Shown: positions 1 through 40,786 of the stretch, piece after piece | Layout: each line of letters starts with the position of its first letter | How positions within the stretch are numbered: position 1 is the stretch's first letter | Assembly: GCA_963847605.1 (NCBI GenBank) | Contig: CAWKAM010000009.1 | Location: forward strand, 12,028-76,027 | Direction: 5' to 3' | DNA from: an uncultured delta proteobacterium | GTDB taxonomy: Bacteria; Desulfobacterota; Desulfomonilia; UBA1062 | Length of the DNA stretch: 64,000 nt | The notes under the pieces: model-generated | What the model was told of the DNA's origin: nothing | The model's input: only the letters and a program-made list of their open reading frames with translations | The model's database searches: none | Program-made: the position numbers and the translations under genes

Positions 1-65
1 ATTAACGAAACGAACTACTAGTCATATTCCAGTAGAAAAACCCGGCCCCGGCCCGATTTCACACC

Positions 66-1196
66 TTACATATCAAACCACTGCTCCGCCGCTTTCCGGC
101 GCTCCCGGAATTTTGTGTACCTGTCGATCTGCTTTTTTGTGCTGTCGTTAACCGCAAAGGTAAACCCGCTGTATATTGACGGGCCGCCCTTTTTCGGCCA
201 GTTGTTGACATCGATAATGTCGGCTTTTAATACCCTTTTTAATGCATGGGTCATGTCTGCGGTGGTTGTCAGCGCCCAGTCGGGCCTGGCCTTTGAAAGG
301 GCGTCTATATATATGGAGCACTTGCCGAGAACCATGGCCTTCATGATATTGGCAGGATTAAAATAGGTCCTGTAGTTGGTTCGCATCATCACATAGTTAT
401 ACTCCTTCAAGGTGGTGTTCTCGTTGGGATTGGTTATGCAGCAGACCCCGCCGTCAGGGCGCAGGACCCTTGCGATCTCGGCGATATAAAACGGCCTTCT
501 GTGCCTGAAGTTAAGATAGGATGCGTCGGTCGTGTTGACAAGGTTCAATGAATCCGACGGAAAGGGGATTTGATTCATATCACGCGTAAAAAAGGTGATC
601 TCCGATCCCGTCTCTCGGTTTAATTTTTCTGCTTCTTCTATGTTGCCTTCCGATATATCCATGCCAAAGACCCTGTAGCCCTTTCCCCCCGCGTAAAGAG
701 AGCGCAATGTGTCTTCTATAACCCTTGCGAGCCTGCCGTACCCGGTGCCCACATCAAGGGCAGAATACTTACCGTCGGAAGATGGAAAATTTGAAAAAAG
801 GGCCAGTCTTGTCAGAACCTCTTGAAGCTGACGCGAGGGGTCACTGGTGATGACGCGGTAATAGCTTGGGTTTGTGGGAAAATCAACAAAGATAGGGGGG
901 CATATTTTTTCAAACGCCACCACCTTCTGCTGATAGCCCTCCGGATCTTCAAGGAGCTGTGCGAGCATCTCCTCAAGGTTTTCCGGGAAATACTTTTTGA
1001 ACTCTTCCCGCGCCAGCCGTGCCGCATCCTCGTCAATTTTGGGTTTTTTCCCAAGCACATCAAAATAAAATGTATAGAGTCCATCCACCAGAGCCTTCTG
1101 GATAAAGCTTAAGGGCTGGTTGAGCTCCCTGTGCAGGGATTCTTCCTTTTCTCTGGTTTGTTTCAGCAATTCTTTTGCCGATTCATCTTTTTTCAT
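66..1196 (-). CDS. Class I SAM-dependent methyltransferase
   Basis: 376 aa ORF. Gly-rich motif I 'LDVGTGYGRLA' is followed by the acidic motif 'VFGMDISE'. Confidence 0.7.
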   Translation of the reverse strand: MKKDESAKELLKQTREKEESLHRELNQPLSFIQKALVDGLYTFYFDVLGKKPKIDEDAARLAREEFKKYFPENLEEMLAQLLEDPEGYQQKVVAFEKICPPIFVDFPTNPSYYRVITSDPSRQLQEVLTRLALFSNFPSSDGKYSALDVGTGYGRLARVIEDTLRSLYAGGKGYRVFGMDISEGNIEEAEKLNRETGSEITFFTRDMNQIPFPSDSLNLVNTTDASYLNFRHRRPFYIAEIARVLRPDGGVCCITNPNENTTLKEYNYVMMRTNYRTYFNPANIMKAMVLGKCSIYIDALSKARPDWALTTTADMTHALKRVLKADIIDVNNWPKKGGPSIYSGFTFAVNDSTKKQIDRYTKFRERRKAAEQWFDM

Positions 1197-1399
1197 AGAT
1201 GTTTATTTATTCAAGTTTAATTGGACCATTACCATCGGATTATATTAAATAGCCCTTTCACAGGCCGATGTCAACCATCCTGAAACCTGTATTTTTTAAA
1301 AAAACTTACCCCGCAGCCGTCAAATTTTATCTGGACAAAGAAAAAGCTTAAAGGTATTAAGCTACAAGTCATTCGATTTATTCATAAAATATTTTTCAG

Positions 1400-2311
1400 A
1401 TGGGAGGCCAGATTATGCCCGGCAACCGGACGGAAGGAGTACGCGCTGTTCTCATAACAGGAACCTCAACCGGAATCGGCAAAGCCTGCGCACTTTACCT
1501 TGACAGCATAGGGTTTAACGTCTTTGCCGGGGTGCGCAGGGAGGCTGACGGCAACGCCTTGAGGAAAAACGCCTCCGGCAGACTCACCCCGGTTCACATA
1601 GACATCACCGATTCAGAATCCATCGATTCCGCCTTGAAGTTCGTATCCGGTGAGGTGGGCGGCGCCGGTCTGGCGGGGCTGGTTAACAATGCGGGCATTG
1701 TTACCGCGAGCGGCCTCCTGGAGTTTCTTTCCATCGCTGAAATCCGCAACCTGCTGGAGGTCAACCTCATCGGGAACATCGCCGTCACCCAGGCGTTTTT
1801 GCCCCTTATCCGGAAGGGGCATGGCCGCATCGTAAACATGGGTTCAATCGCCGGCATCATGCCCCAACCCTACCTGGCCCCGTATTCAGCCTCAAAAGCC
1901 GCTCTTGAAGCCATCACCGATTCGCTCAGACTGGAGCTTAAACCCTGGAAAATCCCGGTTTCAATCATCGAACCCGGAATCGTCTATACCCCCATGTGGG
2001 ACAAAGCTGAGACAGTAGCGGCAATCAAGGCAAAAAATTTCCCGCAGGAGGCCTTTGACCTCTATGGCCCCACCATCAACGAGGTCGTTGAAATCCTTAA
2101 AAATAAAAAAAGGATAAAAATGGTTGCGGTTTCCATTGATGTGGTTGCAAGGACGGTTGCCCGGGCGCTCACGGCAAAAAGGCCCGGGATACGTTACATC
2201 GTCGGCTGGGATGCCAGGTTGGCCGCTTTTCTTACCTGGGCGCTGCCCCACCGGGCGATAGATTGGCTCGCCATGCTGTTCTGGCGGCAGTTAGGATTAA
2301 AGCAAAGGTAG
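1400..2311 (+). CDS. Short-chain dehydrogenase/reductase (SDR) family oxidoreductase
   Basis: N-terminal 'VLITGTSTGIGKA' Rossmann motif. Catalytic 'YSASK' (YxxxK) and 'NNAG' motifs. Confidence 0.85.
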   Translation: MGGQIMPGNRTEGVRAVLITGTSTGIGKACALYLDSIGFNVFAGVRREADGNALRKNASGRLTPVHIDITDSESIDSALKFVSGEVGGAGLAGLVNNAGIVTASGLLEFLSIAEIRNLLEVNLIGNIAVTQAFLPLIRKGHGRIVNMGSIAGIMPQPYLAPYSASKAALEAITDSLRLELKPWKIPVSIIEPGIVYTPMWDKAETVAAIKAKNFPQEAFDLYGPTINEVVEILKNKKRIKMVAVSIDVVARTVARALTAKRPGIRYIVGWDARLAAFLTWALPHRAIDWLAMLFWRQLGLKQR

Positions 2312-2538
2312 CAGAAAGGAATAGGTATGAAACATTTCAGAGCCATTACAACAGTCGATTCTTACAGCAGCCCTTTTTTATTTGGCGTTTCCACAGACGT
2401 CTTATGCAGCTGCCGAGGAGGGGCACAGCATCACCCTGCTCCAATTGCTGATTCTCGGGTTTGTCCTGGGATTGTACCTCTACAACCACTTCAAGGGCAA
2501 AATCAAAGCCATGTTTACAAAAAAGCAATGACCGTTGA

Positions 2539-3052
2539 TCAGGGTATCGCCTCCCGGTAAAGGCTACGTACATACACGATATACTTCCACATGTAGTGAA
2601 GCATCACAACCGCAGTGAAAAGAAGCAGGATCCCGGCATATTGCCAGCCGATAATGTATGCCATGACCGTTGGATAAACCGCGGCAGCCAGCAGATTCGT
2701 CTCCAGATGCGGTATGTCCAGAATCCCGGCTTTCCGTGAGATAAGGATGATGATGGGGGTCCAGAAGGCTATTCCCGTCAGGGTGACGATCAGAAGCGGC
2801 CATGCCTTTGACACATAAACAACAACAAATATCGTCGTAAACCCGAAGAAAAAATCCGCCAGCGCATCAAAATTCGTGCCCGTACGTCACCTTCTTTTTG
2901 CTTCTTCTTGCAAAATAACCATCCAGGGTGTCGGTTATCGCCCCGGCGGCAAAAAGATAGTAGGCAACCACCCTTTCGTCATGTAATAGGAGCCATATAA
3001 TTACCGGGGTCATAATAATCCGCAAAGACGTCATGATATCCGCAATTCGCAT
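2539..3052 (-). CDS. CDP-alcohol phosphatidyltransferase family protein, interrupted by an apparent 1-nt frameshift at an A4 run (~2868-2872)
   Basis: ORF 2867..3052 carries 'DTLDGYFARR...TYGHEF'. The adjacent frame (continuous with ORF 2539..2814) continues 'FDALADFFFG'. Together these rebuild the D-G-x2-A-R ... G-x3-D-x3-D signature. Confidence 0.6.
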
Positions 3053-3103
3053 GGTTGATACACCTCTTAGTCGATCGTTTAATAGATAATTTTAAAGCAA
3101 ACC

Positions 3104-4282
3104 TTAATGGGCATTATTAAATCTAAAGTGATAAAAATAGACTGCGGCAACGAAAATGGCAACTATAACAGAAAGGATTGCCCAAAATATAAAGACATTG
3201 CCCCAGCCTCCCCCCTGTGATGTGACCAGAAGAGGAACAATCACACCGATCAGGACAGTGCCGATATAGCCCATGCCGTCTATAAACCCTGTAGACGCAG
3301 CCACCACCTGCTGATCAACGAAACGTGTCGGCATGGTTGTAACCAGAAAAACATGGGGTCCATACAAAAAGAAGCTGCCGACCAACAATACAAGTGTTGC
3401 CCAAAGGCCTTCTGTAAATGGGAGTATTGCGAAGCTCACCGCAAGGAAAATCAGGAAAATAATCGTCAGCACGTCCTTGCTGATTTTAAATCTGTTGTAC
3501 ACAAGGGTTCCTATCACGCCGGCAATAGGAATCAAAAACACCTTCAGGCCCACATCGCCCATATCTTTTACCATCAGATGCTGATGTTGAAAAAGATATA
3601 GAGGGATCCAGCTTATGACACCATATCTTACCATATTCAGTAGGCATAAAGATAACCCGCTGAAAACAATCGGCAAGGACAATGTGTTTTTGACCTGATT
3701 ATTTACTTTTTGAGGGGGTTCAATCTTCAGCTCCGGCTTTGTCAATAACAGCAATATTCCCCTTGCAAGCATGAAAGCCGAGGCCACAAAGAATCCTGCC
3801 CGCCATCCCCAGGCGCCCACAGCATACGCGGATACCAGCCACGCAACAGAATTGCCGACCTGATAGGATGTTCCTAATATTATCGATGTACGCTCTCTGT
3901 CTTCAGTACGCTGGGTAAGCGCATTTGCTCTCACGCAGGAGGACCAGCCCATGGACTGAAACAATCCCTCCACTATCTCCCCTGCAAATAATAGAGTAAA
4001 AAACCCGGCATAACAGCCGAGGAAAAAATTCATAAAAGCAGAGCAGATTAATCCTATGGAAATGTATACAAACGGATTATAGCGTTCTGAAACCTGACCG
4101 TGAAAAAACTGACCGAATGCATATGCAAAGAAAAAACCGCTGGTGACCAACCCAACGTTCATCATGCTCAAATCTTTATGCGTGGCCAATAACGCCGGCA
4201 CCACAATGCTCAGATTCACCTTGCCGAAATAGTACGTTGCATAAGATGACCAGATATTCCAGAATATAGGTTTGTTTTTCAT
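3104..4282 (-). CDS. MFS-type membrane transporter
   Basis: 392 aa, roughly 12 predicted hydrophobic helices and a Gly-rich MFS-like composition. Overlaps the upstream gene by 4 nt. Confidence 0.7.
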   Translation of the reverse strand: MKNKPIFWNIWSSYATYYFGKVNLSIVVPALLATHKDLSMMNVGLVTSGFFFAYAFGQFFHGQVSERYNPFVYISIGLICSAFMNFFLGCYAGFFTLLFAGEIVEGLFQSMGWSSCVRANALTQRTEDRERTSIILGTSYQVGNSVAWLVSAYAVGAWGWRAGFFVASAFMLARGILLLLTKPELKIEPPQKVNNQVKNTLSLPIVFSGLSLCLLNMVRYGVISWIPLYLFQHQHLMVKDMGDVGLKVFLIPIAGVIGTLVYNRFKISKDVLTIIFLIFLAVSFAILPFTEGLWATLVLLVGSFFLYGPHVFLVTTMPTRFVDQQVVAASTGFIDGMGYIGTVLIGVIVPLLVTSQGGGWGNVFIFWAILSVIVAIFVAAVYFYHFRFNNAH

Positions 4283-4710
4283 GTTTTTTTGTCTTTTGAT
4301 ATGCGTGATATTTCATTCTTGATGTTTGTTGAGGACTGGCCGGGAAAATAGGGAATTACAATAACTCTCCCGTTGATTTCTTCCAGAACCTTTCTTGCCT
4401 TTTCGATGTCCTGCTCATCGTGATTTGAACTTTCCATCAGTATATCCGGTCTAATCATCATCACATTCTGCAATGGCGAATAGGTTTCCTGGGCCACCAC
4501 CACATCCACATATTTTATCGCGGCCGCAAGCGCCATCCGGTCTTCAAAGGAAAGCAACGGCTTGGGCTTTTTCTCCATAACCGCCTCATCCGTCAGGATT
4601 CCCACAATCATTTTCCCGTCTTCTCCGGCGATCGCCTTTGCGTTTCTCATCATCATGAGATGACCTTTATGAACGATATCCAATACATAGTATGAATAAA
4701 CAATTTTCAT
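4279..4710 (-). CDS. Small cytidylyltransferase-fold (HxGH) nucleotidyltransferase, TagD/GCT-like
   Basis: 143 aa. 'YVLDIVHKGHL' HxGH motif near the N-terminus. Size matches glycerol-3-phosphate cytidylyltransferase-like enzymes. Confidence 0.65.
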   Translation of the reverse strand: MKIVYSYYVLDIVHKGHLMMMRNAKAIAGEDGKMIVGILTDEAVMEKKPKPLLSFEDRMALAAAIKYVDVVVAQETYSPLQNVMMIRPDILMESSNHDEQDIEKARKVLEEINGRVIVIPYFPGQSSTNIKNEISRISKDKKT

Positions 4711-4740
4711 TTTTATCTTTCCCTGATTGTCTGATTTCTG

Positions 4741-5169
4741 TTACGGTTTTTTAAAAGCACCCTTTGAAATAGCCATTGCAACAGACATCACCAGAATGCT
4801 GATCGCGATGCTCCATCCGGGTGAATGCACCCCTACCTCTATGGAAAAGGAGATAAATGTAATCGGAACAAGTGCCAAAAGCGACATCACTAGGATGATC
4901 CACCAGGCATACCTGTCCCCTCTGCTGAATTGAAACCTGATCATCATGACAAAACCGATACCCATGGATAACGCAAGGGCGCCCACCACCTTCATGGAGG
5001 CCACGCTGAGCGAAGCCATTTTCGGGTCCAACTCCTCAAACGTCTTGCCGAGAAACCTCTCATGATAAGGCATTATCCTTGGCCAAATTAAATATACCAG
5101 CCCGAACAGGATAATGTAAGCGGCAAACACATAAAGCATGATGGCCGCCACCTTCAATCTCTTTTCCAT
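4741..5169 (-). CDS. Hypothetical integral membrane protein
   Basis: 142 aa, about 4 hydrophobic segments. No recognisable catalytic motif. Confidence 0.45.
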   Translation of the reverse strand: MEKRLKVAAIMLYVFAAYIILFGLVYLIWPRIMPYHERFLGKTFEELDPKMASLSVASMKVVGALALSMGIGFVMMIRFQFSRGDRYAWWIILVMSLLALVPITFISFSIEVGVHSPGWSIAISILVMSVAMAISKGAFKKP

Positions 5170-5309
5170 AATTTATCCCATTGTTATTTTTGTTGCGTCA
5201 TTTTTGGCTGGACAGGAGGGTTTCAAAACCGCTGCCCGATTTTTTTCTTTTACATTATATCCAAAATGGCCCATGGGATCAATAGCCTTTGTTCTTTTAA
5301 ATCAAAATT

Positions 5310-5747
5310 TCAAGCATATTGCGCTTGACAACCATTTCTATAAAGCATGGCGAAGTGAAAAAGACGTATCGTTGGCGATCCTTGGGCGATCGTATACGAC
5401 TGGTAATGCACAAGAAAAGACATCAGCCAGGCGTCTACACGGAAGGTCTCAGCATCAGTCCTTTGTTGCAATCTGTCTAGACTTACAAGACCTGTTGGGA
5501 CTGGATTGCCGTCAACCTGGAGGTTGAATTTCCTTATGTCGAGATCCTCGCTCAAATAGGTATAATTCACTGCTAAGCCATAAGGGAGCGGCAGCTGGCT
5601 CCTTGTTTGCTCGGGGACAGATGACAGGTCAAGGGGCAATAACTGATTGTCTGCAGCGGTTGCAGTCCCGGAAAAAATGAATACAAAACTAATCACAAAG
5701 ATGAAATGGGAAAATCTTATCTTTCTTGGAAGAATAGCATTGAACAT
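5310..5747 (-). CDS. Hypothetical secreted protein
   Basis: Start trimmed to the internal Met. Hydrophobic signal-like N-terminus 'FIFVISFVFIFSGTATAADN'. AT-rich gene. Confidence 0.45.
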   Translation of the reverse strand: MFNAILPRKIRFSHFIFVISFVFIFSGTATAADNQLLPLDLSSVPEQTRSQLPLPYGLAVNYTYLSEDLDIRKFNLQVDGNPVPTGLVSLDRLQQRTDAETFRVDAWLMSFLVHYQSYTIAQGSPTIRLFHFAMLYRNGCQAQYA

Positions 5748-5894
5748 AGTGTGCCTCCTCTTTCTCAACAGATTTTATTAAACATTCATATTGCCAAGTA
5801 CTCTCTCGCGACCTGGTTTCCACAAGCAGAATGCCAACTCTGCTCTCAGAATAACGGCAAGGGATGATCCTCTAAAGGTGTCATGAACCTTGAA

Positions 5895-7793
5895 TTATTT
5901 ATTTCTAGCAACAACAAAATCAGCTACCCATCCGGGGATGAATGCCCAGGCACGATTATCTTTTGAGGTTCTTCCGAGATCCAGAGTCCCAACAAGCCAT
6001 ACTTTTGATTTGTAAGCAACACTGGCTCCATATGACTGCAGGCTATTGGCAAAAGATAGTATTCCAGGTTTTTTTATCATACCACATTCCCCTATGCTGT
6101 ACCCGGCACTATGTCCCTCGGAACCAGGCCACGCAGTAATATAGTGTGCAGCCAATGCCGGGGCCAGAGCCATGGTCCTGACAAACTCAGCTATTGTCTT
6201 ACATTTTAATCCATGCCTGAATGACAACCATGAAGCTATAATTCGGGGTAATGGTGTATATTCATCTTGAGGGTCCGGCACACCATGTATTGTTCTTAAG
6301 TATTCTTTTCCCCATCCATTTGTATCTCTGAAGAAATCATCTAATCTCCACATGGGCGAAGAAAAATCAACGGCATAAATCTTACTGCACTGCTTAAATA
6401 CTTCACGAGCCATGGCTTGTGCATATGTGGTCACATCATGATCAGATTGAATATCAAGGGCGCCTATTGTGTATGCAGTCATTCCCAGATAAATAGGTTG
6501 ATCGTGATAGTTTATGCCAAACTTGTTATGTATGCTTTTTAATTGATATTCGCTCAATGGCTTGGTTACATCACCTTTCATGAAAATGATTCTATCTTTG
6601 ATTCCTTGCAGTTCTGGTTTTTTGCCCATCACCTCAAATCTGTTCAGACCTGCTGCAAGCTGATCTTCCTCCAGGTCAATTACCACTGCTTTTACCTTGT
6701 TCAGTAATCTTGCTCGTAACTCATTATCCTCAAGAGAATAAATCATCTTCAACAATAACTCTGAAAGATTCCCTACTCCCCCGGCATAATCTAATACCAC
6801 TATGGATTTATTACGATCTCCTTGCATTATATCTGTAATGTCATCCAATATTCTCTTAACTAGTGCCTTCCTTCCAATCTGGTCTTGAGAAACGAATGTT
6901 GAGTCAAGAGTGACATGCTCTACAGGAACTTCTGCAACAGGGTATAACCCAAGAAACCTGCTGTTATCGTCAACAAGAAACCTGCCTACTCCGAGAATAG
7001 ACTTCCTATCTACGTTTTGATCTAATAAACAATCCAGGTTCTCTGCGATATAATGAGGAATCTGGCCAGTAATGCGCGCATGAAAAGCCGGATATAATTC
7101 CCTCAGTATTGCATATAAATCAATCCCGGCAGGCCAGATGGCACCAAAACATTGCCAGGCAACGTTTACTTCCACAGGAGTTCCCAACATCGTATGTATC
7201 TTATTGGATCTAAAAACGTTACCCACCCTTCTCAACAGATTTAAAATCTGAATTGTCTCCTGGATGAGTCGTTTCTGTTTATAGAACCCATTAACTTCCC
7301 TATTTTCCACATGTGATGTTATTGCTTTGAAAAATGGTGCCTTGCTGATTAATTTTGATTGTCTTATCAGCTGCCTACCTGTTAATTCCTGATGCGATAT
7401 TTCTTCAGGAACATACCCATTCTGAACTTTCATTTTGTTGATAGCTGAAATAGAGTCCGGTATGCATCCCTCTTTTTCATATTGTTTTATGGTTCTGCTG
7501 TAAGTCAATAGATCTTCCCATGCACTTTGATCATGAAACACCTGACGTGCTTCAACGGTATCTCTTTCCAACTTTAGCGGATACATGGTTGCAGGATCCA
7601 CAAGATCCTTGCTCGTGATAACATCATCTTTCATGGGATTCTTGATGTTGAAACTCACACCTTCTTCGATCTTCTTAAGGCTTCCAATGCTGTAAATCTT
7701 TCTGGGGGTAGTGGGGGGTACAGATACCGAGCTCTTGGTCTCCGATTCACCCCTGGTAGTCACAAAACTCAGATCTGTTTTTAGGTTTTTCAT
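5895..7793 (-). CDS. Hypothetical ~630 aa protein with a central class I SAM-methyltransferase-like core
   Basis: Start moved to Met16 because it is preceded by AGAGGAA. Motif I 'VVLDYAGGVGN', acidic motif 'AVVIDLEED' and motif 'IFMKGDV' lie in canonical order. 'GHSAG' sits near the C-terminus. No signal peptide. AT-rich. Confidence 0.5.
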   Translation of the reverse strand: MKNLKTDLSFVTTRGESETKSSVSVPPTTPRKIYSIGSLKKIEEGVSFNIKNPMKDDVITSKDLVDPATMYPLKLERDTVEARQVFHDQSAWEDLLTYSRTIKQYEKEGCIPDSISAINKMKVQNGYVPEEISHQELTGRQLIRQSKLISKAPFFKAITSHVENREVNGFYKQKRLIQETIQILNLLRRVGNVFRSNKIHTMLGTPVEVNVAWQCFGAIWPAGIDLYAILRELYPAFHARITGQIPHYIAENLDCLLDQNVDRKSILGVGRFLVDDNSRFLGLYPVAEVPVEHVTLDSTFVSQDQIGRKALVKRILDDITDIMQGDRNKSIVVLDYAGGVGNLSELLLKMIYSLEDNELRARLLNKVKAVVIDLEEDQLAAGLNRFEVMGKKPELQGIKDRIIFMKGDVTKPLSEYQLKSIHNKFGINYHDQPIYLGMTAYTIGALDIQSDHDVTTYAQAMAREVFKQCSKIYAVDFSSPMWRLDDFFRDTNGWGKEYLRTIHGVPDPQDEYTPLPRIIASWLSFRHGLKCKTIAEFVRTMALAPALAAHYITAWPGSEGHSAGYSIGECGMIKKPGILSFANSLQSYGASVAYKSKVWLVGTLDLGRTSKDNRAWAFIPGWVADFVVARNK

Positions 7794-8313
7794 TTGTGTT
7801 CCTCTTTCGTTGAAGCTGGATTGGGTACCAATGCACATTTGTCGAGGGTTTCAGATGATAACAGGATATGCATAGGTCAATTGTATCTTACAAAACATGT
7901 GCCAAATAATTGAGTTAGAGTTACCTAAATAACCTCGGGTTATTCACAGGCATAATCTAGTACTATTTAATAATAATCAGTATTACCGTTGTATTACATA
8001 TAGTTGAAAAAATTATAGGAAGAGAAACTTTTATGACTGTAGTAAATTAATCCTACCCCGAGAAGAAAAAGTTTTCCAATGATCGGTCCCTCTTATCACG
8101 CTGTTTGCCCATATTAGCGTATTGCAGACTTTTATCACTCTAAGCAATATTGGATATCTAATAATAATAAGTATAGCTTACGTGCCATAATTTCATTTCA
8201 AGATGTATTGATCTTGAGCGTAGATCTCTTTTTGAAACCTGTGATACATGAGTAATGAACCGGCTTTCAGCTCTTGCTTTCTTGTCATTTGAGAAACGAA
8301 AAGAGGAGGGACA

Positions 8314-8751
8314 ATGATGGAACAAGAAAGACTGCTTAAGACGGCATTTTTGGCGGGTGCGATAACCGATGCTCTGGCGGTGTTGCCGATGTTGGTTCCT
8401 GAACTTGCCCGTCTCCTTTGGGGATTCGACAATCAGTCCCATGCCTACCGGTTCGCCATGGGTTATGCTGCTTCTCTCATGCTGGGTTGGACAGGGCTTC
8501 TTATGTGGGCATACCGGCGTCCGATCGAAAGGCGCTTTGTCGCGGCTCTAACGGTCTTTGTCATTTACGGCCTTGCGTTGACCGAGGTCGTTGCCGTCCT
8601 TTCGGGCCGTCTCGCGGTATGGCGCATGGTTCCTACGTGGTGTCTTCAGGTGGCATTGCTCTGCCTCTTCGCAGGGGCTTATCACTATCATACTATTCGT
8701 GCATTCATGAGTATCCGCCCGGAGCGTTGCAGAAAAGACTACAACGTATAG
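8314..8751 (+). CDS. Hypothetical membrane protein
   Basis: 145 aa, 4 hydrophobic helices. Confidence 0.45.
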   Translation: MMEQERLLKTAFLAGAITDALAVLPMLVPELARLLWGFDNQSHAYRFAMGYAASLMLGWTGLLMWAYRRPIERRFVAALTVFVIYGLALTEVVAVLSGRLAVWRMVPTWCLQVALLCLFAGAYHYHTIRAFMSIRPERCRKDYNV

Positions 8752-8849
8752 CATCCGTGCCGTAATTGCCATATCCTTAGGGATGGGCATAATTATGCTA
8801 TGACTCATTGCCCGAGGCAAAACCGACATTATTATAGAGGTCGTATAAA

Positions 8850-9200
8850 ATGAAGAAGATACTCTTAGTAGACGATGATATACGCATCCAAAGGCTTATC
8901 AGGGAAGAGCTCGAAGAGGATGGGTATCATATATCGACCGCCTCCAATGGAAAGGAGGCACTTGCATGTATAAACAGGCCCGAAAAGCCCGATCTTATCA
9001 TCCTGGACCTCCGCATGCCCAGAATGAGCGGGCTTGATACCATGAAATTCATATCAAATCTCAAAGAAAAAGTCCCTGTGATCATTTTTACGGCATATGG
9101 CGCCTACAGGAATGATCCGTTGGCCAAGTCGGCGAATGCCTATGTTGTAAAGTCCTCCGACGTTTCGGAGTTGAAAAAGAAGGTCCATGATTTGCTATAG
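8850..9200 (+). CDS. Stand-alone response regulator receiver (CheY-like) protein
   Basis: 'KILLVDDD' region, phospho-acceptor context 'LIILDLRMP'. 116 aa with no output domain. Confidence 0.85.
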   Translation: MKKILLVDDDIRIQRLIREELEEDGYHISTASNGKEALACINRPEKPDLIILDLRMPRMSGLDTMKFISNLKEKVPVIIFTAYGAYRNDPLAKSANAYVVKSSDVSELKKKVHDLL

Positions 9201-9301
9201 CCTTGCCGTTATGTAAGTTTCTCCTGAGGAACGCATCTTTCCTCATACGATATCCCATTGATTATTGGCAGAAGACAACTAACATTGAAGTAAAAAGAGA
9301 C

Positions 9302-10288
9302 ATGAACATGACAGCGCCTGCGATCCACATCTGTGATCTGTCCAAAATCTATGTCGTGAACGAGCGTGAAGTCGGGGTGAAGGCCGCGCTCAAAAGCCTC
9401 GTGCACCGGCGCACGAGAGAAATACACGCCGTGGACGGCATCACGTTCGACCTTGCCCCCGGCGAGATCGTGGGGTTCTTAGGCCCCAACGGAGCAGGTA
9501 AGACGACCACGCTCAAGATGCTTTCGGGCCTGCTCCACCCCACTGCGGGCGAGGTCAGCGTGCTCGGCCATGTGCCGTGGAAGCGCGACAAAGAATATCT
9601 CCGCCGGATTACGCTCGTTATGGGGCAGCGTAACCAGTTGATCTGGGATATCCCGGCCCTGGATTCGTTCGAATTGAACCGGGCCGTCTACCGCATTCCG
9701 CTTGAGGACTATCGCCTCATGCTCGGCGAGCTGACCGAGCTCCTTGAGCTGGGGCCGCTTCTCCAGAAGCCTGTCCGTAACCTCTCTTTAGGTGAACGGA
9801 TGAAGTGCGAGATTGCATCCGCCCTCCTGCACCGGCCCCAGGTGGTTTTCCTCGACGAGCCCACCATAGGCCTTGATGTGACCATGCAGCGGCGCATCCG
9901 CACCTTTATTGCAGAGTACAACCGCCGCTTCGATGCGACCGTCCTGCTGACCAGCCACTACATGGCCGACGTCGAGGCGCTGTGCCGCCGCGTCGTCGTC
10001 ATCCACCACGGCAGGCTCCTCTTCGACGGCGACCTGTCGAATATGGTGCAGCAATTCACCGCCCATAAAACCATTGTGGTGCAATTGGGAAATTGCCAGA
10101 CAAACTTGAATTCCTACGGCGAGGTGGTCTCCTGTTCCGACGGCCTTGTTACGCTGCGCGTCCCGAAGGCTGAGACCGCCCATGTCACCGAGCGTCTGCT
10201 GGCCGATCTGCCGGTGATCGACCTGCTGGTAGAGGACCCGCCCATCGAGGAAGTAATCGAGCGGGTCTTTGCACAGGAGCCCATATGA
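9302..10288 (+). CDS. ABC transporter ATP-binding protein (ABC-2 exporter type)
   Basis: Walker A 'GPNGAGKTT', signature 'LSLGERMK', Walker B 'VVFLDEPT'. Start chosen at the internal Met. Confidence 0.85.
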   Translation: MNMTAPAIHICDLSKIYVVNEREVGVKAALKSLVHRRTREIHAVDGITFDLAPGEIVGFLGPNGAGKTTTLKMLSGLLHPTAGEVSVLGHVPWKRDKEYLRRITLVMGQRNQLIWDIPALDSFELNRAVYRIPLEDYRLMLGELTELLELGPLLQKPVRNLSLGERMKCEIASALLHRPQVVFLDEPTIGLDVTMQRRIRTFIAEYNRRFDATVLLTSHYMADVEALCRRVVVIHHGRLLFDGDLSNMVQQFTAHKTIVVQLGNCQTNLNSYGEVVSCSDGLVTLRVPKAETAHVTERLLADLPVIDLLVEDPPIEEVIERVFAQEPI

Positions 10289-11088
10289 AGGCGCTTAAGG
10301 AGCTCTATGTGCAGCAGTTTAAGACCACCTTCATCATGATGCTCCAGTACCGCGCCTCGCTCGTCATCTGGATGATGGGGCACGTCTTAGAGCCGCTCGT
10401 CTATCTCATAGTCTGGTCGGTCGTCTCGAATGGGGCGGGCGGCAGCGTCGGCGATTATACCGCACAGGGGTTCGCGGCCTATTTCATCGTGCTGATGCTG
10501 GTCAATCACCTCACCTACACCTGGATCATGTATGAATACGAATACCGCATCCGGGAAGGGGGGCTGTCGTTCGCCCTGCTGAGACCGGTGCATCCGATCC
10601 ACTCCGACATTGCCGACAATGTCTCGGCAAAGCTGGTCACCCTTCCCTTCATGCTGCTCATTGCGGCCGGGCTGGCAGCAATCTTCAAACCCGCCGCCAC
10701 TCCCGCTTTATGGGCCGTCGCAGCATTTGTCCCTGCGTTGCTGCTTGCCTTCATACTGCGGTTCCTCCTGGAGTGGACACTGGCGCTGGCCGCCTTCTGG
10801 ACCACGCGCACCGGCGCCATCAACCAGATCTATTTTGTCCTGGTGCTGTTCCTTTCCGGGCAGATCGCCCCGATTGCGCTTTTCCCCTATCCGATCCGGG
10901 TGGCGGCAACTGTCCTGCCCTTCCGATGGATGATCGGCTTTCCGGTGGAGCTCCTTCTCGGCCGTCTTACGTTAGGCGATGCACTGACAGGCCTTATGGC
11001 CCAGGCTGCATGGCTGGGTGTAAGCCTGGTACTGCTCCGGATCGTGTGGCGCGCGGGTGTGCGTGTCTACTCGGCGGTGGGCGCATGA
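10285..11088 (+). CDS. ABC-2 family transporter permease
   Basis: Polytopic 267 aa. ATGA overlap with the upstream ATPase gene. Confidence 0.75.
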   Translation: MKALKELYVQQFKTTFIMMLQYRASLVIWMMGHVLEPLVYLIVWSVVSNGAGGSVGDYTAQGFAAYFIVLMLVNHLTYTWIMYEYEYRIREGGLSFALLRPVHPIHSDIADNVSAKLVTLPFMLLIAAGLAAIFKPAATPALWAVAAFVPALLLAFILRFLLEWTLALAAFWTTRTGAINQIYFVLVLFLSGQIAPIALFPYPIRVAATVLPFRWMIGFPVELLLGRLTLGDALTGLMAQAAWLGVSLVLLRIVWRAGVRVYSAVGA

Positions 11089-11870
11089 GCTACCCTCGCC
11101 TCCTGGCTGTCTTTTTCAGGGTCAGCGTTATGGGCGAACTGGCCTACCGCATCAACTTTTTCGTGCAGCTGTTCCAGTCTGTCCTGGAATTGGCCACGGC
11201 AGTGGCCGGCCTGGCGGTGATCTTCTCACATACCAGCACCCTCGGTGGTTGGCGGCCCGACGAGGTGCTGGCACTGGTGGGGATTTACATCCTTGTCGGA
11301 GGTATAATCGGCTTTGTGATACAGCCGGGCATGGAGCAGCTCATTGCATCCGTCAGGAACGGGACGCTCGATTTCACGCTCACCAAGCCGGAAGACGCCC
11401 AACTCCTCGTCAGCATCCAGCAGGTGGAAATCTGGAAGCTGATTGATATCGTGTTGGGTTTCGCTGTTCTCGCAACAGCACTCGTGCGGCTGGGGGAGAA
11501 AATGGGGATGCAGCAGGCTGCGGAATTCACCGTGATGCTGCTCGCAGGCACGGTCATCATCTACAGCTTCTGGCTGCTCCTGGCCACGCTCTCATTCTGG
11601 TTTGTAAGGGTGGAGAATATCCTTATGATCTTCCAGAGCATGTACGAGGCAGGACGCTGGCCGGTGAGCCTGTATCCGGGGTGGCTGCGCTTCGCGCTTA
11701 CCTTCATCGTGCCGGTCGCCTTTGCCACGACAGTGCCCGCCGAGGCCTTGACCGGCCGTATGAACGAGGTCACCCTGGCAGGCGCGATAGTCATGGCTTT
11801 AGTCCTGTCAGTGATCTCACGGGTTTTCTGGCACCTGGGATTGCGCCATTATACTGGGACTTCGGCATAA
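11085..11870 (+). CDS. ABC-2 family transporter permease (second subunit)
   Basis: Start 'MSYPRLLAVFF' overlaps the previous stop (ATGA). The listed ORF 10710.. is an out-of-frame N-terminal extension. Confidence 0.75.
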   Translation: MSYPRLLAVFFRVSVMGELAYRINFFVQLFQSVLELATAVAGLAVIFSHTSTLGGWRPDEVLALVGIYILVGGIIGFVIQPGMEQLIASVRNGTLDFTLTKPEDAQLLVSIQQVEIWKLIDIVLGFAVLATALVRLGEKMGMQQAAEFTVMLLAGTVIIYSFWLLLATLSFWFVRVENILMIFQSMYEAGRWPVSLYPGWLRFALTFIVPVAFATTVPAEALTGRMNEVTLAGAIVMALVLSVISRVFWHLGLRHYTGTSA

Positions 11871-11997
11871 TGAAAGGGTCCCTGACAGCTCTGAAAAAAA
11901 TTTAAGGATAGGGAAAAACTTGCAAGTGATGGAAAAAAGTCATACGTGAAGGGAGAGTCGCTTCGATATCAGGAAACGGGTCAAGGGAGAGATACAC

Positions 11998-12915
11998 ATG
12001 AGTGTACTGGATGCCATAGGGAATACGCCTCTTGTGGAGATAAAAAATATCTGGGATTCCGCCAAGACGGGCGTGCGGATCATGGCCAAGCTGGAAGGCT
12101 CCAATCCGGGCGGCTCGGTCAAAGACCGGCCCGCACTCTTCATGCTGAGGGAGGCCGTGGAGTCGGGAAAGTTGACCCCGGGCAAGGTGATCCTGGAGCC
12201 CACATCAGGCAACACCGGCATAGGTATGGCCATGGTGGCCGCAGCCATGGGATTCAAGATCAAGCTGACCATGCCCACCTGCGTGAGTACCGAGCGCAGG
12301 GCGGTTCTCCAGGCACTCGGGGCCGAACTCGAGCTGACCCCGGGCTGCGACAAAACGGACGGTGCCATCAATCGGGCCCACCATATCATGGAATGCGACG
12401 GCAACCATTTCTTCATGCCAAACCAGTTCGATAACCCTCACAACTATCTGGCTCATTATAAAACCACCGGGCCCGAGATCTTTGAGCAAACAAAGGGCGA
12501 GGTCGATTGCTTTGTGGCAGGCATGGGCACTACCGGCACCCTCATGGGGTGCTCCATGTTCCTCAAGGAAAAGAGGCCTTCCATAAAGATCATCGGCGTC
12601 GAACCGACGCTGAACCATCGCATCCAGGGATTGAAAAATATGAATGAGGCCATTGTCCCCAAGATCTATGACCCGGCTCGGCTTGATGATAAAATTATCT
12701 GTTCCGACGAGGATGCCTTCGAGACTACCCGCGACCTCTCCATCCACGAAGGCCTGTTCTGCGGGGTCAGCTCGGGTGCGGCCATGTGGGGTGCGCTTCA
12801 GGTCGCACGCAACCTTAAACGCGGATCCACCGTTGTGGTCATCTTCCCGGACCGGGGCGACCGCTACCTTTCAACCGAGGTCTTCCGTTCCTTCTGCGCC
12901 CAGTGCCCGCCGTGA
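11998..12915 (+). CDS. cysK: Cysteine synthase (CysK/CysM family, PLP-dependent)
   Basis: PLP-lysine motif 'GGSVKDRPA', 'TSGNTGIG' and the 'G-T-G-G-T' loop. 305 aa. Confidence 0.85.
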   Translation: MSVLDAIGNTPLVEIKNIWDSAKTGVRIMAKLEGSNPGGSVKDRPALFMLREAVESGKLTPGKVILEPTSGNTGIGMAMVAAAMGFKIKLTMPTCVSTERRAVLQALGAELELTPGCDKTDGAINRAHHIMECDGNHFFMPNQFDNPHNYLAHYKTTGPEIFEQTKGEVDCFVAGMGTTGTLMGCSMFLKEKRPSIKIIGVEPTLNHRIQGLKNMNEAIVPKIYDPARLDDKIICSDEDAFETTRDLSIHEGLFCGVSSGAAMWGALQVARNLKRGSTVVVIFPDRGDRYLSTEVFRSFCAQCPP

Positions 12916-12945: not shown

Positions 12946-13944
12946 TTGATGGAATATGCTCTCTTGGCCCAATCCGTCATTTCCGGCGAAATACTATCCC
13001 GCAAACAGGCCCTGGCCGTCCTGGCCGCTTCCGACGAGGATTCTCTTGGCCTGTTCGATGCGGCCTGGAGGGTACGCCGCCATTTTCATGGCAATCGCGT
13101 GCAGGTTCAGGTGCTGAGCAATGCCAAGAGCGGAATCTGCACGGAAGACTGCCACTACTGCTCACAGTCCTTAATCTCCAAGGCCGAGATCGCCCGCTAT
13201 CCGCTCAAGACCCGTGATGTACTGCTCGCCGAGGCCAGGGAAGCCCGGCGTCTCAAGGCCCACCGTTTCTGCATGGGCTTGAGCGGCCGCACGCTCAATG
13301 ATACCGAGGTGGATGCACTGTGTGGGGTAATCCGGGAAATTAAGGCCGGTACGGGCATCTCCGTCTGCTGCTCACTGGGGTTCCTGTCGCCGGAGCAGGC
13401 ACGACGACTGCAAGATGCCGGACTGGACCGTGTCAACCACAATATCAACACCAGCGAACGCCACTATCCCTCGATCTGCACGACCCATACCTGGTCCGAC
13501 CGCATGCATAACCTGAAGGTCTGCCGGGCAGCAGGGCTCGAGATATGCTCGGGCGGCATCATCGGCCAGGGCGAAACGGATGAAGACATCGTCGACATGT
13601 TGCTGGCGTTGAGGCAGATAAACCCCGAGTCGATCCCCATCAATTTTCTCATCCCTGTTCCCGGCACACCTTTCCAGATGTTGGACCCATGCCTGACGCC
13701 GCTGCGCTGCCTGCGGGTTCTTGCCTTGGCGCGCCTCCTTCATCCCGCAGCCGATATCAGGATGGCCGGCGGCCGAGAGGTACATCTCCGCAGCCTCCAA
13801 CCAATGGCGCTGTTCCTGGTCAATTCAATCTTCGTCAACGGTTATCTGACCGAAGGGGGACAGCCCCGGGACGAGGCCTTGAGAATGATAGAGGATCTGG
13901 GTTTCGAGCTTGAAGTGGAAGGCGCTGCAAGCTTCAGGGAGTAA
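12946..13944 (+). CDS. bioB: Biotin synthase
   Basis: Radical SAM 'CTEDCHYCSQS' (CxxxCxxC). BioB-like length. First gene of the bio operon. Confidence 0.9.
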   Translation: MMEYALLAQSVISGEILSRKQALAVLAASDEDSLGLFDAAWRVRRHFHGNRVQVQVLSNAKSGICTEDCHYCSQSLISKAEIARYPLKTRDVLLAEAREARRLKAHRFCMGLSGRTLNDTEVDALCGVIREIKAGTGISVCCSLGFLSPEQARRLQDAGLDRVNHNINTSERHYPSICTTHTWSDRMHNLKVCRAAGLEICSGGIIGQGETDEDIVDMLLALRQINPESIPINFLIPVPGTPFQMLDPCLTPLRCLRVLALARLLHPAADIRMAGGREVHLRSLQPMALFLVNSIFVNGYLTEGGQPRDEALRMIEDLGFELEVEGAASFRE

Positions 13945-13949
13945 TCATT

Positions 13950-15113
13950 ATGGATTTTCTGCAACGTGAACTCGAACAACTTGAACGCGCGGCACTGCGC
14001 CGCTGCACTGAGGCGTGGCCACAGTCCGGAGGGAGAATCGAGCTCACAGACGGCAGGACACTGCTCAACTTTTCCTCCAACGATTACCTTGGACTCGCCC
14101 GAGACCCGCATGTCAAGCGCCGGGCCATAGAGGTGATCGAACGTTGGGGTTGCGGGGCCACAGCCTCGCGCCTGATGTGCGGCACGCTTGAGTTACACGA
14201 GGAACTGGAAGCCGCTTTGGCCCGCCTTGTCGGGGGGGAAAAAGCGCTGGTTTTCAGCAGCGGTTTCGGCATGAATGTCGGTGTGGTGGCGGCGCTGGCA
14301 GGCCGCGACGACATCATTTTCTCAGACCGGCTGGTGCATGCCAGCCTGATCGATGGCGCCCGCCTGAGCCGAGCCACCATCAAACCCTTTTCACACAACG
14401 ACGTCGCCGGCTTGGCACACCTGATGGAGACTACACCCTGCCGGGGACGCCGGCTCATCGTGACCGAATCGGTATTCAGCATGGACGGCGATCTGGCACC
14501 CCTTGAGGAAATCCGAACCCTGGCGGCTCAATACCGGGCCGTCATGCTGGTGGATGAGGCGCATGCCGTAGGGGTCTGGGGAAAGGGCGGGGGCGTTTGC
14601 CGCCAACTGGGCAAGGGTATCCTGCCGGACTTCACAGCCGGTACGCTCGGCAAGGCTCTGGGCAGTATGGGCGGCTTTGTCGTCTGCTCGGAGATAAGCC
14701 GCGAGTTCCTGATCAATCGCGCACGCAGTTTCATTTTTGCAACGGCCCTGTCACCTGCCTGCCTGGGGGCCGCACTAGGGGCGATAGAGCGGATCAGTCA
14801 GGATCCTGATATGGGCGAGCGGCTGCTGGATCGTGCAAGGACCTTCCATGGCCTGTTGAAGGCCGAGGGGCTGAGACTCCCGGATTTCCGCTCCCAGATT
14901 CTTCCCGTGCCCGTCGGCGAGAATGAAGCTGCGCTGGAATTGGCGCAGCGCCTGCGCGGGCAAGGTCTGCTGGTAACCGCAATACGCCCCCCGACCGTAC
15001 CCCGCGGCACGGCACGCCTGCGCCTTTCAGTCACACTCTCTCATGAGATGCATGATCTCCAGTGGGCAGCAGCACAGATCGGCCGGGTGTCTAAGGGAAT
15101 GGGCCTGGTTTGA
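13950..15113 (+). CDS. bioF: 8-amino-7-oxononanoate synthase
   Basis: Class II aminotransferase-like AONS motifs 'DEAHAVG' and 'TLGKALGSMGG' (PLP Lys). Lies between bioB and bioD. Confidence 0.85.
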   Translation: MDFLQRELEQLERAALRRCTEAWPQSGGRIELTDGRTLLNFSSNDYLGLARDPHVKRRAIEVIERWGCGATASRLMCGTLELHEELEAALARLVGGEKALVFSSGFGMNVGVVAALAGRDDIIFSDRLVHASLIDGARLSRATIKPFSHNDVAGLAHLMETTPCRGRRLIVTESVFSMDGDLAPLEEIRTLAAQYRAVMLVDEAHAVGVWGKGGGVCRQLGKGILPDFTAGTLGKALGSMGGFVVCSEISREFLINRARSFIFATALSPACLGAALGAIERISQDPDMGERLLDRARTFHGLLKAEGLRLPDFRSQILPVPVGENEAALELAQRLRGQGLLVTAIRPPTVPRGTARLRLSVTLSHEMHDLQWAAAQIGRVSKGMGLV

Positions 15114-15133
15114 AAGGGGTGGAAGAAAACCGC

Positions 15134-15847
15134 ATGATCCCCGGGATCTTCGTCACCGGCACGGGCACCGATGTAGGCAAAACCATAACCGTTGCCGGTC
15201 TCATGCGCCGCCTTCTACGGCACGGTGTGGACGCCATGGTCATGAAGCCCGTGCAGACCGGTGCTTACCTCGATGCAACAGGGCATGCAACAGCCCCGGA
15301 TATCGACTTCGTACTTCAGGCAACCGGATTGCCCATGGATGATAAGACCATGCACCACCTTGCACCCTACCTCTATGAACCGGCCTGTTCGCCTCATCTG
15401 GCTGCCCGCCTGGCCGGTAGGCCGATCCGCCTGGAGGTCATCCTGGAGAGCGCCCGGGTGTTGGCAGGGTGTCACCGATTGCTGGTGGTCGAGGGCGCAG
15501 GAGGCCTTATGGTTCCGCTGAACGAATCCGAAACCATGCTGGATCTTGCCTCTGCGATGTCGATGCCGTTGCTGCTGGTGGGCCACTCGGGTCTGGGCAC
15601 GATCAATCACGTACTGCTTTCTCTCGAAGCCCTTCGCAGCCGCAATCTTAAGATCCTCGGGGTCATTCTCAATGATACCCGCCCCGTTGCGGAGCACAAC
15701 AGGTTTATTTACGACGACAACCTGCACGCCATCGAATCGTTCGGGAACATCCGGGTCCTGGCCCGTATCCCCTGGCTGGGAACCCCGCCCGACCCGGACC
15801 TGTTGGACCGGGCCCTGGGTGCGTGGGATCTTTATAAGGAGCTCTGA
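15134..15847 (+). CDS. bioD: Dethiobiotin synthetase
   Basis: P-loop 'GTGTDVGKT'. ATG start chosen downstream of the TTG-initiated listed ORF. Confidence 0.85.
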   Translation: MIPGIFVTGTGTDVGKTITVAGLMRRLLRHGVDAMVMKPVQTGAYLDATGHATAPDIDFVLQATGLPMDDKTMHHLAPYLYEPACSPHLAARLAGRPIRLEVILESARVLAGCHRLLVVEGAGGLMVPLNESETMLDLASAMSMPLLLVGHSGLGTINHVLLSLEALRSRNLKILGVILNDTRPVAEHNRFIYDDNLHAIESFGNIRVLARIPWLGTPPDPDLLDRALGAWDLYKEL

Positions 15848-15850
15848 ATC

Positions 15851-34195: not shown

Positions 34196-34650
34196 GCTTC
34201 GACATTCATAGACTGGTTGAAGGCAGGTCCCTGATCCTCGGAGGTGTAACCATCCGACATGATAAAGGGCTGCTCGGCCATTCCGATGGTGACGTGATCA
34301 TCCACTCGGTGTGTGATGCAATCCTGGGCGCCCTTGCGAAGACAGACATCGGCGAGATGTATCCCGACACCTCACAAGAAACCGAGGGCATGAACTCTCT
34401 GAACATGCTGCAAGCTATCATGGAAACAGCGGCAAGCAATTATGCGCTTGTCAACATCGACATCAACTGCATCTGCGAAAGACCGAAACTGGCCGGCTAC
34501 CGGTCTGAAATGATCAACACCATTGCAATGGCGGCAGGTATTGATCCATCGGCTGTTTCAGTAAAATTCCGTACCCACGAGGGCCTCGGGGATATCGGCG
34601 AAGGCCGGGCCATCGCTGCTCAGGCCGTGGTGCTCCTGGACAAGAAGTAA
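34174..34650 (+). CDS. ispF: 2-C-methyl-D-erythritol 2,4-cyclodiphosphate synthase
   Basis: 'RVGIGFDIHRL' and 'GHSDGDV' metal-binding motifs. Overlaps ispD. Confidence 0.9.
   Translation: MPYRVGIGFDIHRLVEGRSLILGGVTIRHDKGLLGHSDGDVIIHSVCDAILGALAKTDIGEMYPDTSQETEGMNSLNMLQAIMETAASNYALVNIDINCICERPKLAGYRSEMINTIAMAAGIDPSAVSVKFRTHEGLGDIGEGRAIAAQAVVLLDKK

Positions 34651-40710: not shown

Positions 40711-40786
<76 letters not shown>

Follow-up and report, generated by a model that had tools for sequence, protein, structure and literature searches.

The 64-kb window examined here (positions 12,028 to 76,027 of contig CAWKAM010000009.1, assembly GCA_963847605.1), from an uncultured delta proteobacterium of the phylum Desulfobacterota, holds at its left end a compact gene cluster in which a stand-alone cytidylyltransferase (CT), a transporter of the major facilitator superfamily (MFS) and a membrane enzyme of the CDP-alcohol phosphotransferase family (hereafter, the transferase) are encoded together with a short-chain dehydrogenase/reductase (SDR), a methyltransferase and two small membrane proteins. 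Judged from its gene content and from the neighborhoods of its relatives, this module has in our estimation an even chance of encoding a Kennedy-like head-group route in which the head group would be a phosphonate and the product a phosphonolipid. The grouping of the genes exceeds chance, since the CT and MFS genes overlap by 4 bp at the CT stop codon and the same genes recur, though not always in the same order, in 10 further Desulfobacterota loci, where transferase identity is 62-99%. Gene calls were taken from a six-frame listing of open reading frames (ORFs) combined with domain scans (Pfam, NCBIfam) of the window, which gave the following features:

66-1196, minus strand: class I S-adenosylmethionine (SAM)-dependent methyltransferase, 376 aa; Methyltransf_25, _11 and _31 matches at residues 142-263
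1400-2311, plus strand: classical SDR oxidoreductase, 303 aa; PF00106, 3.6e-45
2327-2531, plus strand: small membrane ORF, 67 codons once repaired, located by tblastn and alignment; +1 insertion at 2357
2539-3052, minus strand: CDP-alcohol phosphotransferase family gene, PF01066 once repaired; +1 insertion at 2875
3104-4282, minus strand: MFS transporter of the organophosphate:phosphate antiporter (OPA) type (GlpT/UhpT/SLC37), 392 aa, intact; PF07690, 5e-32
4279-4710, minus strand: CT, 143 aa, intact; PF01467, 2.2e-12, with HKGH and ISST-like motifs
4741-5169, minus strand: membrane protein of 142 aa (memb142), first gene of the operon, without a Pfam match

The memb142 gene lies 30 bp upstream of CT, which, with the 4-bp overlap of CT and MFS, defines a memb142-CT-MFS-transferase operon that converges on the SDR and the small ORF. 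These last two genes run in the same direction with a 15-bp gap, and the stop codons of the small ORF and the transferase are 7 bp apart. Across relatives (whose loci are numbered L001 and so on), CT adjoins the transferase in 11 of 11 Desulfobacterota loci, the window included, and memb142 is found directly upstream of CT in all Smithella-like loci at 75-96% identity, with no counterpart found in L005 and L089. The identities given to the methyltransferase, the MFS permease, the HxGH cytidylyltransferase and the SDR in the original prediction were borne out by domain matches, and the adjacency of CT and transferase in every Desulfobacterota locus agrees with the two-step logic that it had proposed, in which a small molecule is activated as a CMP/CDP derivative and transferred by the membrane enzyme. 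The SDR, placed by the same prediction in the common strand block, proved to lie on the plus strand, and neither the 67-codon ORF at 2327-2531 nor the memb142 gene had been noticed. Regulatory signals were also scanned for: a promoter-like site precedes memb142 (5282-5254), with the promoter scan finding such sites no more often than in shuffled sequence, the number expected by chance; terminator-like sites were about twice as common as in shuffled sequence, yet do not mark the operon ends; and no riboswitch or known RNA was matched in Rfam at E <= 0.1 in window positions 1-12,000. At its left end the cluster is truncated by the window edge, 65 bp past the methyltransferase.

The neighborhoods of relatives point to a phosphonate. 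In five Desulfobacterota loci (L001, L009, L010, L011 and L089), genes for phosphoenolpyruvate mutase (Ppm) and phosphonopyruvate decarboxylase (Ppd) stand beside the cluster, the Ppd gene of L010 being cut by the contig end. They are located downstream of, and convergent with, a pair of genes resembling ketoacyl synthase III (KAS III) in L001, L009 and L010, and directly upstream of the cluster in the same direction in L011, while L089 shows an apparent operon of EamA, a Ppm::NTP_transf_3 fusion, Ppd, CT and transferase, in which the run from the fused Ppm through Ppd and CT to the transferase has gaps of 33 and 71 bp and covers about 4 kb in all. Two kinds of Ppm fusion occur among the five loci, with PF01467 and with PF12804, and both Ppm types carry the Ppm-specific EDKxxxxxNS motif (EDKIGLKMNS and EDKKFPKVNS) that is regarded as the mark of a true Ppm (PMC6697681). 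Moreover, in the Dehalococcoidia locus L023 a PhnD-type phosphonate-binding protein (PF12974, 1e-71; TIGR03431, 261 bits, 0.1 bit below the cut-off of 261.1) is encoded between nucleoside triphosphate (NTP) transferase genes, together with an ABC ATPase and a permease. Two other genes or gene pairs were recorded in this neighborhood. A radical SAM/SPASM gene of 339 aa (L001 11279-12298, minus strand) always accompanies the CT::Ppm fusion and Ppd in the Smithella loci (also L009 and L011); it is unlike Fom3 because it is without a B12-binding domain, and no orthology was detectable between the radical SAM/SPASM genes of L001 and L020. In L001 alone, a BrnT/BrnA-type toxin-antitoxin pair (7736-8297) separates the KAS III-like pair from the phosphonate genes.

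The nucleotidyltransferases provide a second line of evidence. In the window CT, HKGH occupies residues 14-17 and GQSSTNI lies close to the C-terminus, and both align to motifs of the Fom1 cytidylyltransferase (CyTase) domain, although the HxGH and C-terminal (R)TxGISTT-like motifs mark the PF01467 superfamily as such and not TagD in particular. The protein scored below the cut-offs of the TagD model (TIGR01518, 55.7 versus 165.4 bits) and of RfaE domain II (77 versus 181.5 bits), and its best solved relative was the 2-hydroxyethylphosphonate cytidylyltransferase domain of Fom1 (5X3D, 62 bits), followed by ECT (47) and TagD (42). Among 1.84 billion representative sequences, HldE-type (PfkB-fused) and Ppm-fused CT domains scored alike against the window CT (68-77 bits), and assignment of its substrate by homology was abandoned on account of this equidistance; with the CT domains that are fused to Ppm in its relatives, it shares only about 30-33% identity. 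The automatic JGI name for the protein, 'HEP cytidylyltransferase', was not counted as evidence. In 4 of 10 Dehalococcoidia/Chloroflexi loci (L016, L020, L023 and L092), CT is replaced by one to three NTP transferases of the LicC/PntC (LicC/MobA) type, a non-orthologous replacement by an unrelated fold, and the Desulfobacteraceae locus L005 has both nucleotidyltransferase types along with an OPA-type MFS. The Dehalococcoidia NTP transferase is nearest to Tde1415 PntC (6PD1), a 2-aminoethylphosphonate (AEP) cytidylyltransferase, at 55 bits, compared with 47 for LicC and 26 for IPCT (2XME), and these enzymes reach 56-62 bits with the IPCT-DIPPS model, whose cut-off is 580. In comparison with LicC, PntC has been found to favor phosphonates over the matching phosphate esters by orders of magnitude. 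Both the Fom1 CyTase and Tde1415 PntC act on C2 phosphonates (PMC6697681). The Fom1 domain (5X3D) and PntC (6PD1/6PD2) are alike in being the best solved relatives of the window CT and of its Dehalococcoidia replacements; the window CT differs from Fom1 in standing alone, without a Ppm fusion, and in being matched as well by HldE-type domains.

The transporter slot of the cluster was compared as well. For the MFS of the window, the best NCBIfam models (PgtP, UhpC and GlpT) were all below cut-off (TIGR00881, 107 versus 408 bits), and the best match in the Protein Data Bank (PDB) was GlpT (1PW4, 67 bits), followed by SLC37A2 and SLC37A4. It resembles the GlpT/UhpT/SLC37 antiporters in these sequence matches and in keeping the arginine R269 of GlpT (as R219), and departs from them in falling below every curated cut-off, in its shorter length of 392 aa and in having a lysine (K21) in place of GlpT R45. 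Members of the OPA family carry phosphate esters and also the phosphonate fosfomycin, and the suggestion in the original prediction that the MFS supplies the head group is plausible. An intact MFS with 90% amino-acid identity is found in L090. In L001, L002-L004, L010 and L013 the gene is reduced to an N-terminal remnant of 34-57 codons between CT and transferase (L001 1875-1976; L010 4410-4547; L013 9779-9940; L002 9801-9914), and the differing end-points of the deletions suggest that the transporter was lost repeatedly. The slot is occupied by an OPA-type MFS in the window, L090, L005, L016 and L092, by EamA in L089 and L020 (59% identical across phyla) and by PhnCDE in L023; whichever type fills the slot, it could plausibly carry a phosph(on)ate. 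An intact MFS is missing from all five loci that bear Ppm: only a remnant is left in L001 and L010, the gene is absent from L009 and L011, and in L089 its place is taken by EamA.

The transferase of the window had to be repaired in silico before it could be compared. Its reading frame is split into two ORFs (2867-3052, 61 aa; 2539-2814, 91 aa), with no intact ORF, by one extra G at position 2875, where the minus strand reads CAC[G]AATTTTGAT. The extra base lies within the catalytic motif, between its G and its first D, so that D-G-x2-A-R-x8-G-x3-D-x3-D is not in one frame as encoded and a stop follows after ...YGHEF; removal of one base gives the complete motif DGYFARRSKKKVTYGH(N/E)FDALAD, which relatives encode intact. 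The repaired protein of 170 aa matches PF01066 (1.5e-17; 64.9 bits, cut-off 22) over profile positions 1-150 of 152, and is 98-99% identical to the intact 170-aa metagenomic protein P0001 (L001 2028-2540). The family named in the original prediction therefore stands for the repaired protein, whereas the gene as encoded has no intact ORF, a frameshift which that prediction had overlooked.

A search of 5.8 billion proteins with the transferase returned 95 matches, 90 from its family and 5 PgsA-like proteins at about 40 bits; family members scored at least 111 bits, bar one marginal match of 71 bits without a Pfam domain on record. True members were found in 15 loci from 14 metagenome-assembled genomes (MAGs) among 185,579 species genomes, and identity to the window protein was 83-94% in Smithella, 82% and 62% in Desulfonema and Desulfobacteraceae MAGs, and 38-56% in Dehalococcoidia or Chloroflexi. 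The family is rare, and its hosts are Smithella, Desulfobacteraceae and Dehalococcoidia; the high identity to Smithella proteins marks the organism of the window as Smithella-like. All curated models were missed by wide margins: TIGR00560 pgsA (30.7 versus a cut-off of 109.1 bits), TIGR00473 pssA (37.4 versus 107), NF053678 ClsA (35.2 versus 240), NF041135 IPCT-DIPPS (16.4 versus 580) and, likewise, those of archaeal synthases. A housekeeping PgsA or PssA, the grouping that would have undone the original prediction, was ruled out by these curated cut-offs and by the score gap in the protein search. The AlphaFold2 model of the repaired transferase has six helices (pLDDT 85.7), and its top Foldseek match was Staphylococcus aureus PgsA (7DRK/7DRJ, TM-score 0.70-0.72), with AF2299, IPCT-DIPPS and PIP synthase next. 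This match of a predicted fold confirms membership in the CDP-alcohol phosphatidyltransferase superfamily and is silent on substrates. Compared with PgsA, the transferase is alike in size, six-helix fold and DGx2ARx8Gx3Dx3D motif, and unlike in its identity of about 20%, in its location in an accessory cluster with a cytidylyltransferase, whereas PgsA stands alone as a housekeeping gene, and in the family-specific motifs RRSKK (after the DG..AR motif) and PHLDTN.

The remaining genes of the cluster have a lipid-like character in part. The product of the small ORF combines a signal-peptide-like N-terminus with a single transmembrane helix and a YNHF(K/R) motif; the ORF is broken by a one-base insertion at 2357, whose removal gives MKHFRAITTVILTAALFYLAFPQTSYAAAEEGHSITLLQLLILGFVLGLYLYNHFKGKIKAMFTKKQ. 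By tblastn and alignment, the small ORF adjoins the transferase in most Desulfobacterota and Dehalococcoidia loci, with no match in L018, L020 and L022. The methyltransferase extends beyond its class I SAM domain at both the N- and C-terminus, has no NCBIfam equivalog match and is kept in all Desulfobacterota loci with a long enough flank (65-98% identity). The SDR, which is shared by every Desulfobacterota locus but missing from the Dehalococcoidia clusters, has lipid-type SDRs as its nearest solved relatives (DHRS9, 137 bits, and 17-beta-hydroxysteroid dehydrogenases) and scored 139 bits with the NCBIfam model of 3-ketodihydrosphingosine reductase, against a cut-off of 400. Wherever the flank of a Desulfobacterota locus is long enough, as in L001 (5467-7497), L002, L005, L009-L012 and L090, the methyltransferase is followed by the KAS III-like gene pair, of which the first member has a Cys-His-Asn triad and the second is without the active-site Cys, an arrangement that recalls heterodimers such as PqsBC; by analogy with these loci, the pair of the window would lie beyond its left edge at base 1. 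All Dehalococcoidia loci but one have an LCM-family methyltransferase on the diverging strand, and some also have genes for acyl carrier protein (ACP), KAS and KAS III.

The identities of the genes, the structure of the operon, the synteny, the exchange of nucleotidyltransferase and transporter types and the Ppm/Ppd neighbors of relatives are observed; from these elements we infer a substrate, an acceptor and roles for the methyltransferase, the SDR and the small ORF, as follows. A small phosphonate, probably a C2 compound (2-aminoethylphosphonate, 2-hydroxyethylphosphonate or a derivative), would be imported or made in the cell: import would proceed through the OPA-type MFS, or through EamA or the PhnCDE ABC system that take its position in relatives, and synthesis, where the genes are present, through Ppm and Ppd. 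The 143-aa CT would then couple the phosphonate to CMP from CTP, and the six-helix CDP-OH-family enzyme, probably together with the 67-aa single-pass protein, would transfer the phosphonyl group to a lipid alcohol with release of CMP. The methyltransferase may tailor the head group or the lipid, while the SDR, along with the off-window KAS III-like pair, may shape the lipid part or reduce phosphonoacetaldehyde.

Several observations weigh against a phosphonate head group. The 64-kb window has no Ppm, Ppd or other phosphonate gene, and when the Ppm, Ppd and radical SAM proteins of L001 were searched against it by tblastn, the sole match was that of the CT domain to the CT gene of the window itself; the window edge at base 1 cuts off the side where relatives hold Ppm and Ppd. 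In addition, no Ppm occurs in the DNA seen of L002, L090, L005 (these three examined within 10 kb on either side), L012, L013 and all Dehalococcoidia loci, a distribution across many loci that, on the phosphonate reading, suggests salvage. No AEP aminotransferase or Fe-alcohol dehydrogenase was found in any cluster, and no aminotransferase domain appears next to it in the domain tables of any locus; how phosphonoacetaldehyde would be converted into the head group is therefore left unexplained. Since the Ppm genes are already fused to a nucleotidyltransferase of their own, the stand-alone CT could serve another substrate, and it is as near to the HldE-type heptose-phosphate adenylyltransferase domains as to the Ppm-fused ones. 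Besides, phosphite and phosphate esters are likewise substrates of PhnD-family proteins and OPA carriers, and the nearest fold of the transferase is that of PgsA, whose donor is CDP-diacylglycerol. Because the window is without Ppm and Ppd, CT is equidistant from two enzyme groups and the carriers are not exclusive to phosphonates, the substrate is called mainly from gene context.

The alternative that deserves most weight, though clearly less probable than the phosphonate route, keeps the same two-step logic but puts an ordinary phosphate ester in place of the phosphonate: glycerol-3-phosphate, phosphoethanolamine, phosphocholine or a similar compound would enter through the MFS, CT would form the CDP-alcohol, diacylglycerol or a different lipid would be the acceptor for the transferase, N-methylation of the head group by the methyltransferase could follow, and the phosphonate genes of relatives would serve another product. 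It would fit the membership of CT in the TagD/ECT/CCT superfamily, with ECT and TagD among its PDB matches, as well as GlpT, a glycerol-3-phosphate transporter, as the nearest solved relative of the MFS, the loci L002, L090 and L005 without Ppm within 10 kb, and the nucleotidyltransferase that the Ppm genes bring with them. However, it leaves aside that Ppm-Ppd stands beside CT and transferase in three independent arrangements, once apparently as one operon, that PhnCDE is embedded in the Dehalococcoidia version, and that both nucleotidyltransferase types have phosphonate-specific enzymes as their nearest solved relatives, with CT itself far under the TagD equivalog cut-off. An unlikely reading is that the transferase works like PgsA or PssA, with CDP-diacylglycerol as donor and a small hydroxylated acceptor (possibly 2-hydroxyethylphosphonate or an imported alcohol phosphate), CT then catalyzing a separate step. 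The size of 170 aa, the six helices and the best fold match would agree with it, as would PssA, ClsA and PgsA being the top curated-model matches and the automatic JGI names 'phosphatidylglycerophosphate synthase' and 'cardiolipin synthase'; but those matches are far under the family cut-offs, the fold likeness is mostly that of a minimal six-helix core also shared by DIPPS and AF2299, which use CDP-alcohol donors, and the constant presence of a soluble cytidylyltransferase in the same operon, of either of two unrelated folds, would be left unexplained.

The products favored in the original prediction, soluble phosphodiester compatible solutes such as di-myo-inositol phosphate (DIP) or glycerophosphoinositol (GPI), did not hold up and are highly improbable. 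The logic of a cytidylyltransferase followed by a CDP-OH-family transferase is the same as that of IPCT/DIPPS, and weak matches to the IPCT-DIPPS model exist for the transferase (16 bits) and for the Dehalococcoidia NTP transferases, yet all are far under the cut-off; IPCT structures match the NTP transferases much less well than PntC does (26 versus 55 bits), the domain tables that were looked up for the loci include no inositol-phosphate synthase domain, and the neighbors are of lipid type (the KAS III-like pair, ACP, KAS and the lipid-type SDR). The pathway was rejected on these scores, domain tables and neighbors. The hosts also speak against it: they are peat, sediment and digester MAGs that bear the names Smithella and Dehalococcoidia, groups that are not hyperthermophiles.

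Whichever head group is used, the module may be inactive in the window genome, with both frameshifts real and the transferase and small ORF fresh pseudogenes, and we regard this as evenly poised against its opposite. None of the 6-8 aligned relatives shares the insertions at 2875 and 2357, both of which lie outside homopolymer runs; the two genes that they disrupt are precisely those that make up the family core across phyla, and the coding regions of the 5.4-kb block, aligned to five relatives, have no further frame-breaking indel. A homopolymer error behind the frameshift at 2875 was discarded, as in an alignment with seven relatives, none of which has the extra G, this base sits between CAC and AAT outside any run. 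On the other hand, CT, MFS, methyltransferase and SDR are all intact in the window, and the dN/dS of 0.07 between the repaired transferase and that of L001 gives no sign of relaxed selection, so that any inactivation would be very recent; the insertions may instead be assembly or consensus errors, and for both sites the odds between fresh pseudogenes and such errors are about even. The locus L090 is colinear with window positions 13-5410 at 91.6% DNA identity and has CT, MFS, transferase and small ORF intact; the arrangement of the window therefore exists in working order elsewhere. An apparent reciprocal pattern, in which the MFS is intact when the transferase is broken and the reverse, was dropped because L090 has both intact.

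Beyond the cluster, synteny breaks at about 5410-5895, and the relatives L001 and L090 align only up to 5410. The next ORF (5895-7838, minus strand) encodes 647 aa, or 632 aa from the second Met, with a motif-I-like VLDYAGGVG and no significant Pfam match or PDB sequence match; its family, with about 75 members annotated as 'hypothetical proteins' and 520-650 aa long, is spread over Smithellaceae, Desulfobacterales and an Anammoxibacter MAG. A copy of this gene with 97% identity is found in L093 with the same right-hand neighbors as in the window, with pentose-phosphate genes replacing the cluster. Window positions 7799-8162, an AT-rich region upstream of the 647-aa ORF together with its first 13 codons, are 90% identical to a 370-bp stretch of L001 (5109-5478) located between the methyltransferase and the first KAS III-like gene and absent from that place in L009 and L010. 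The stretch, which gave no Rfam match, looks like a rearrangement remnant or a shared mobile or regulatory segment. GC content is low (0.34-0.45) across 4.0-8.3 kb. Elsewhere in the window, the N-terminal sequences of the ORFs give the impression of ordinary chromosome, with apparent biotin-synthesis and isoprenoid-precursor genes (e.g., 12946-17176 and 33515-38168), and a tRNA-Phe is present at 40711-40786.

About half of all phosphonate gene clusters in bacteria are believed to modify lipids or glycans, and the enzyme that places a CMP-activated phosphonate on a bacterial lipid is uncharacterized (PMC6697681; PMC8942020). Ppm neighborhoods with CDP-OH transferase and PntC genes, designated 'Burkholderiales_CDP-OH' or Group 1, have been predicted to make phosphonolipids, the product being described as uncharacterized (Yu et al., 2013, as relayed in PMC8942020). 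The present cluster can be classed as a variant of these predicted, uncharacterized "CDP-OH" phosphonolipid clusters, with which it was compared by gene content and description. Shared features are the CDP-OH gene, phosphonate-type cytidylyltransferases and, in relatives, the fused Ppm and Ppd. The clusters of the window type differ from Group 1 in being without the AEP aminotransferase and the alpha-ketoglutarate oxygenase, in the stand-alone CT of the Smithella versions, which belongs to PF01467 and not to PntC (PF12804), in the extra 67-aa membrane ORF, SDR, 376-aa methyltransferase, KAS III-like pair and transporter (OPA-MFS, EamA or PhnCDE), and in their anaerobic hosts (Syntrophales, Desulfobacterales and Dehalococcoidia). 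The literature searched held no description of the cluster, or of phosphonates in Smithella or Dehalococcoidia. The likeness to the eukaryotic Kennedy pathway and the LicC/PntC step lies in CTP activation by a PF01467 or PF12804 enzyme followed by CDP-OH-family transfer to a lipid alcohol; the window cluster differs in a transferase of six helices and 170 aa that is like PgsA and not like the larger CPT/EPT, in having no kinase gene and in a head group that is probably a phosphonate. Eukaryotic ethanolamine phosphotransferases accept CMP-AEP.

Overall, the gene annotated in the window as "phosphatidylglycerophosphate synthase" is neither PgsA nor, as sequenced, intact. It is possible, although we hold it only tentatively, that the transferase family and its 67-aa partner are an unrecognized type of bacterial phosphonolipid synthase of strict anaerobes (Syntrophales, Desulfobacterales and Dehalococcoidia), with a head group made by Ppm and Ppd or scavenged through OPA-MFS, EamA or PhnCDE, and with a lipid anchor, perhaps not glycerol-based, built by the KAS III-like pair and the lipid-type SDR. 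Among the members of the cluster family are compact candidates for the phosphonolipid synthase that is missing, namely L089, with its operon of about 4 kb, and L090, with the intact arrangement of the window. If the transporter-bearing versions without Ppm do salvage phosphonates, they would constitute a new environmental phosphonate sink in anoxic peat, sediments and digesters, and such salvage into membranes could spare phosphate or shield the membranes from phospholipases.

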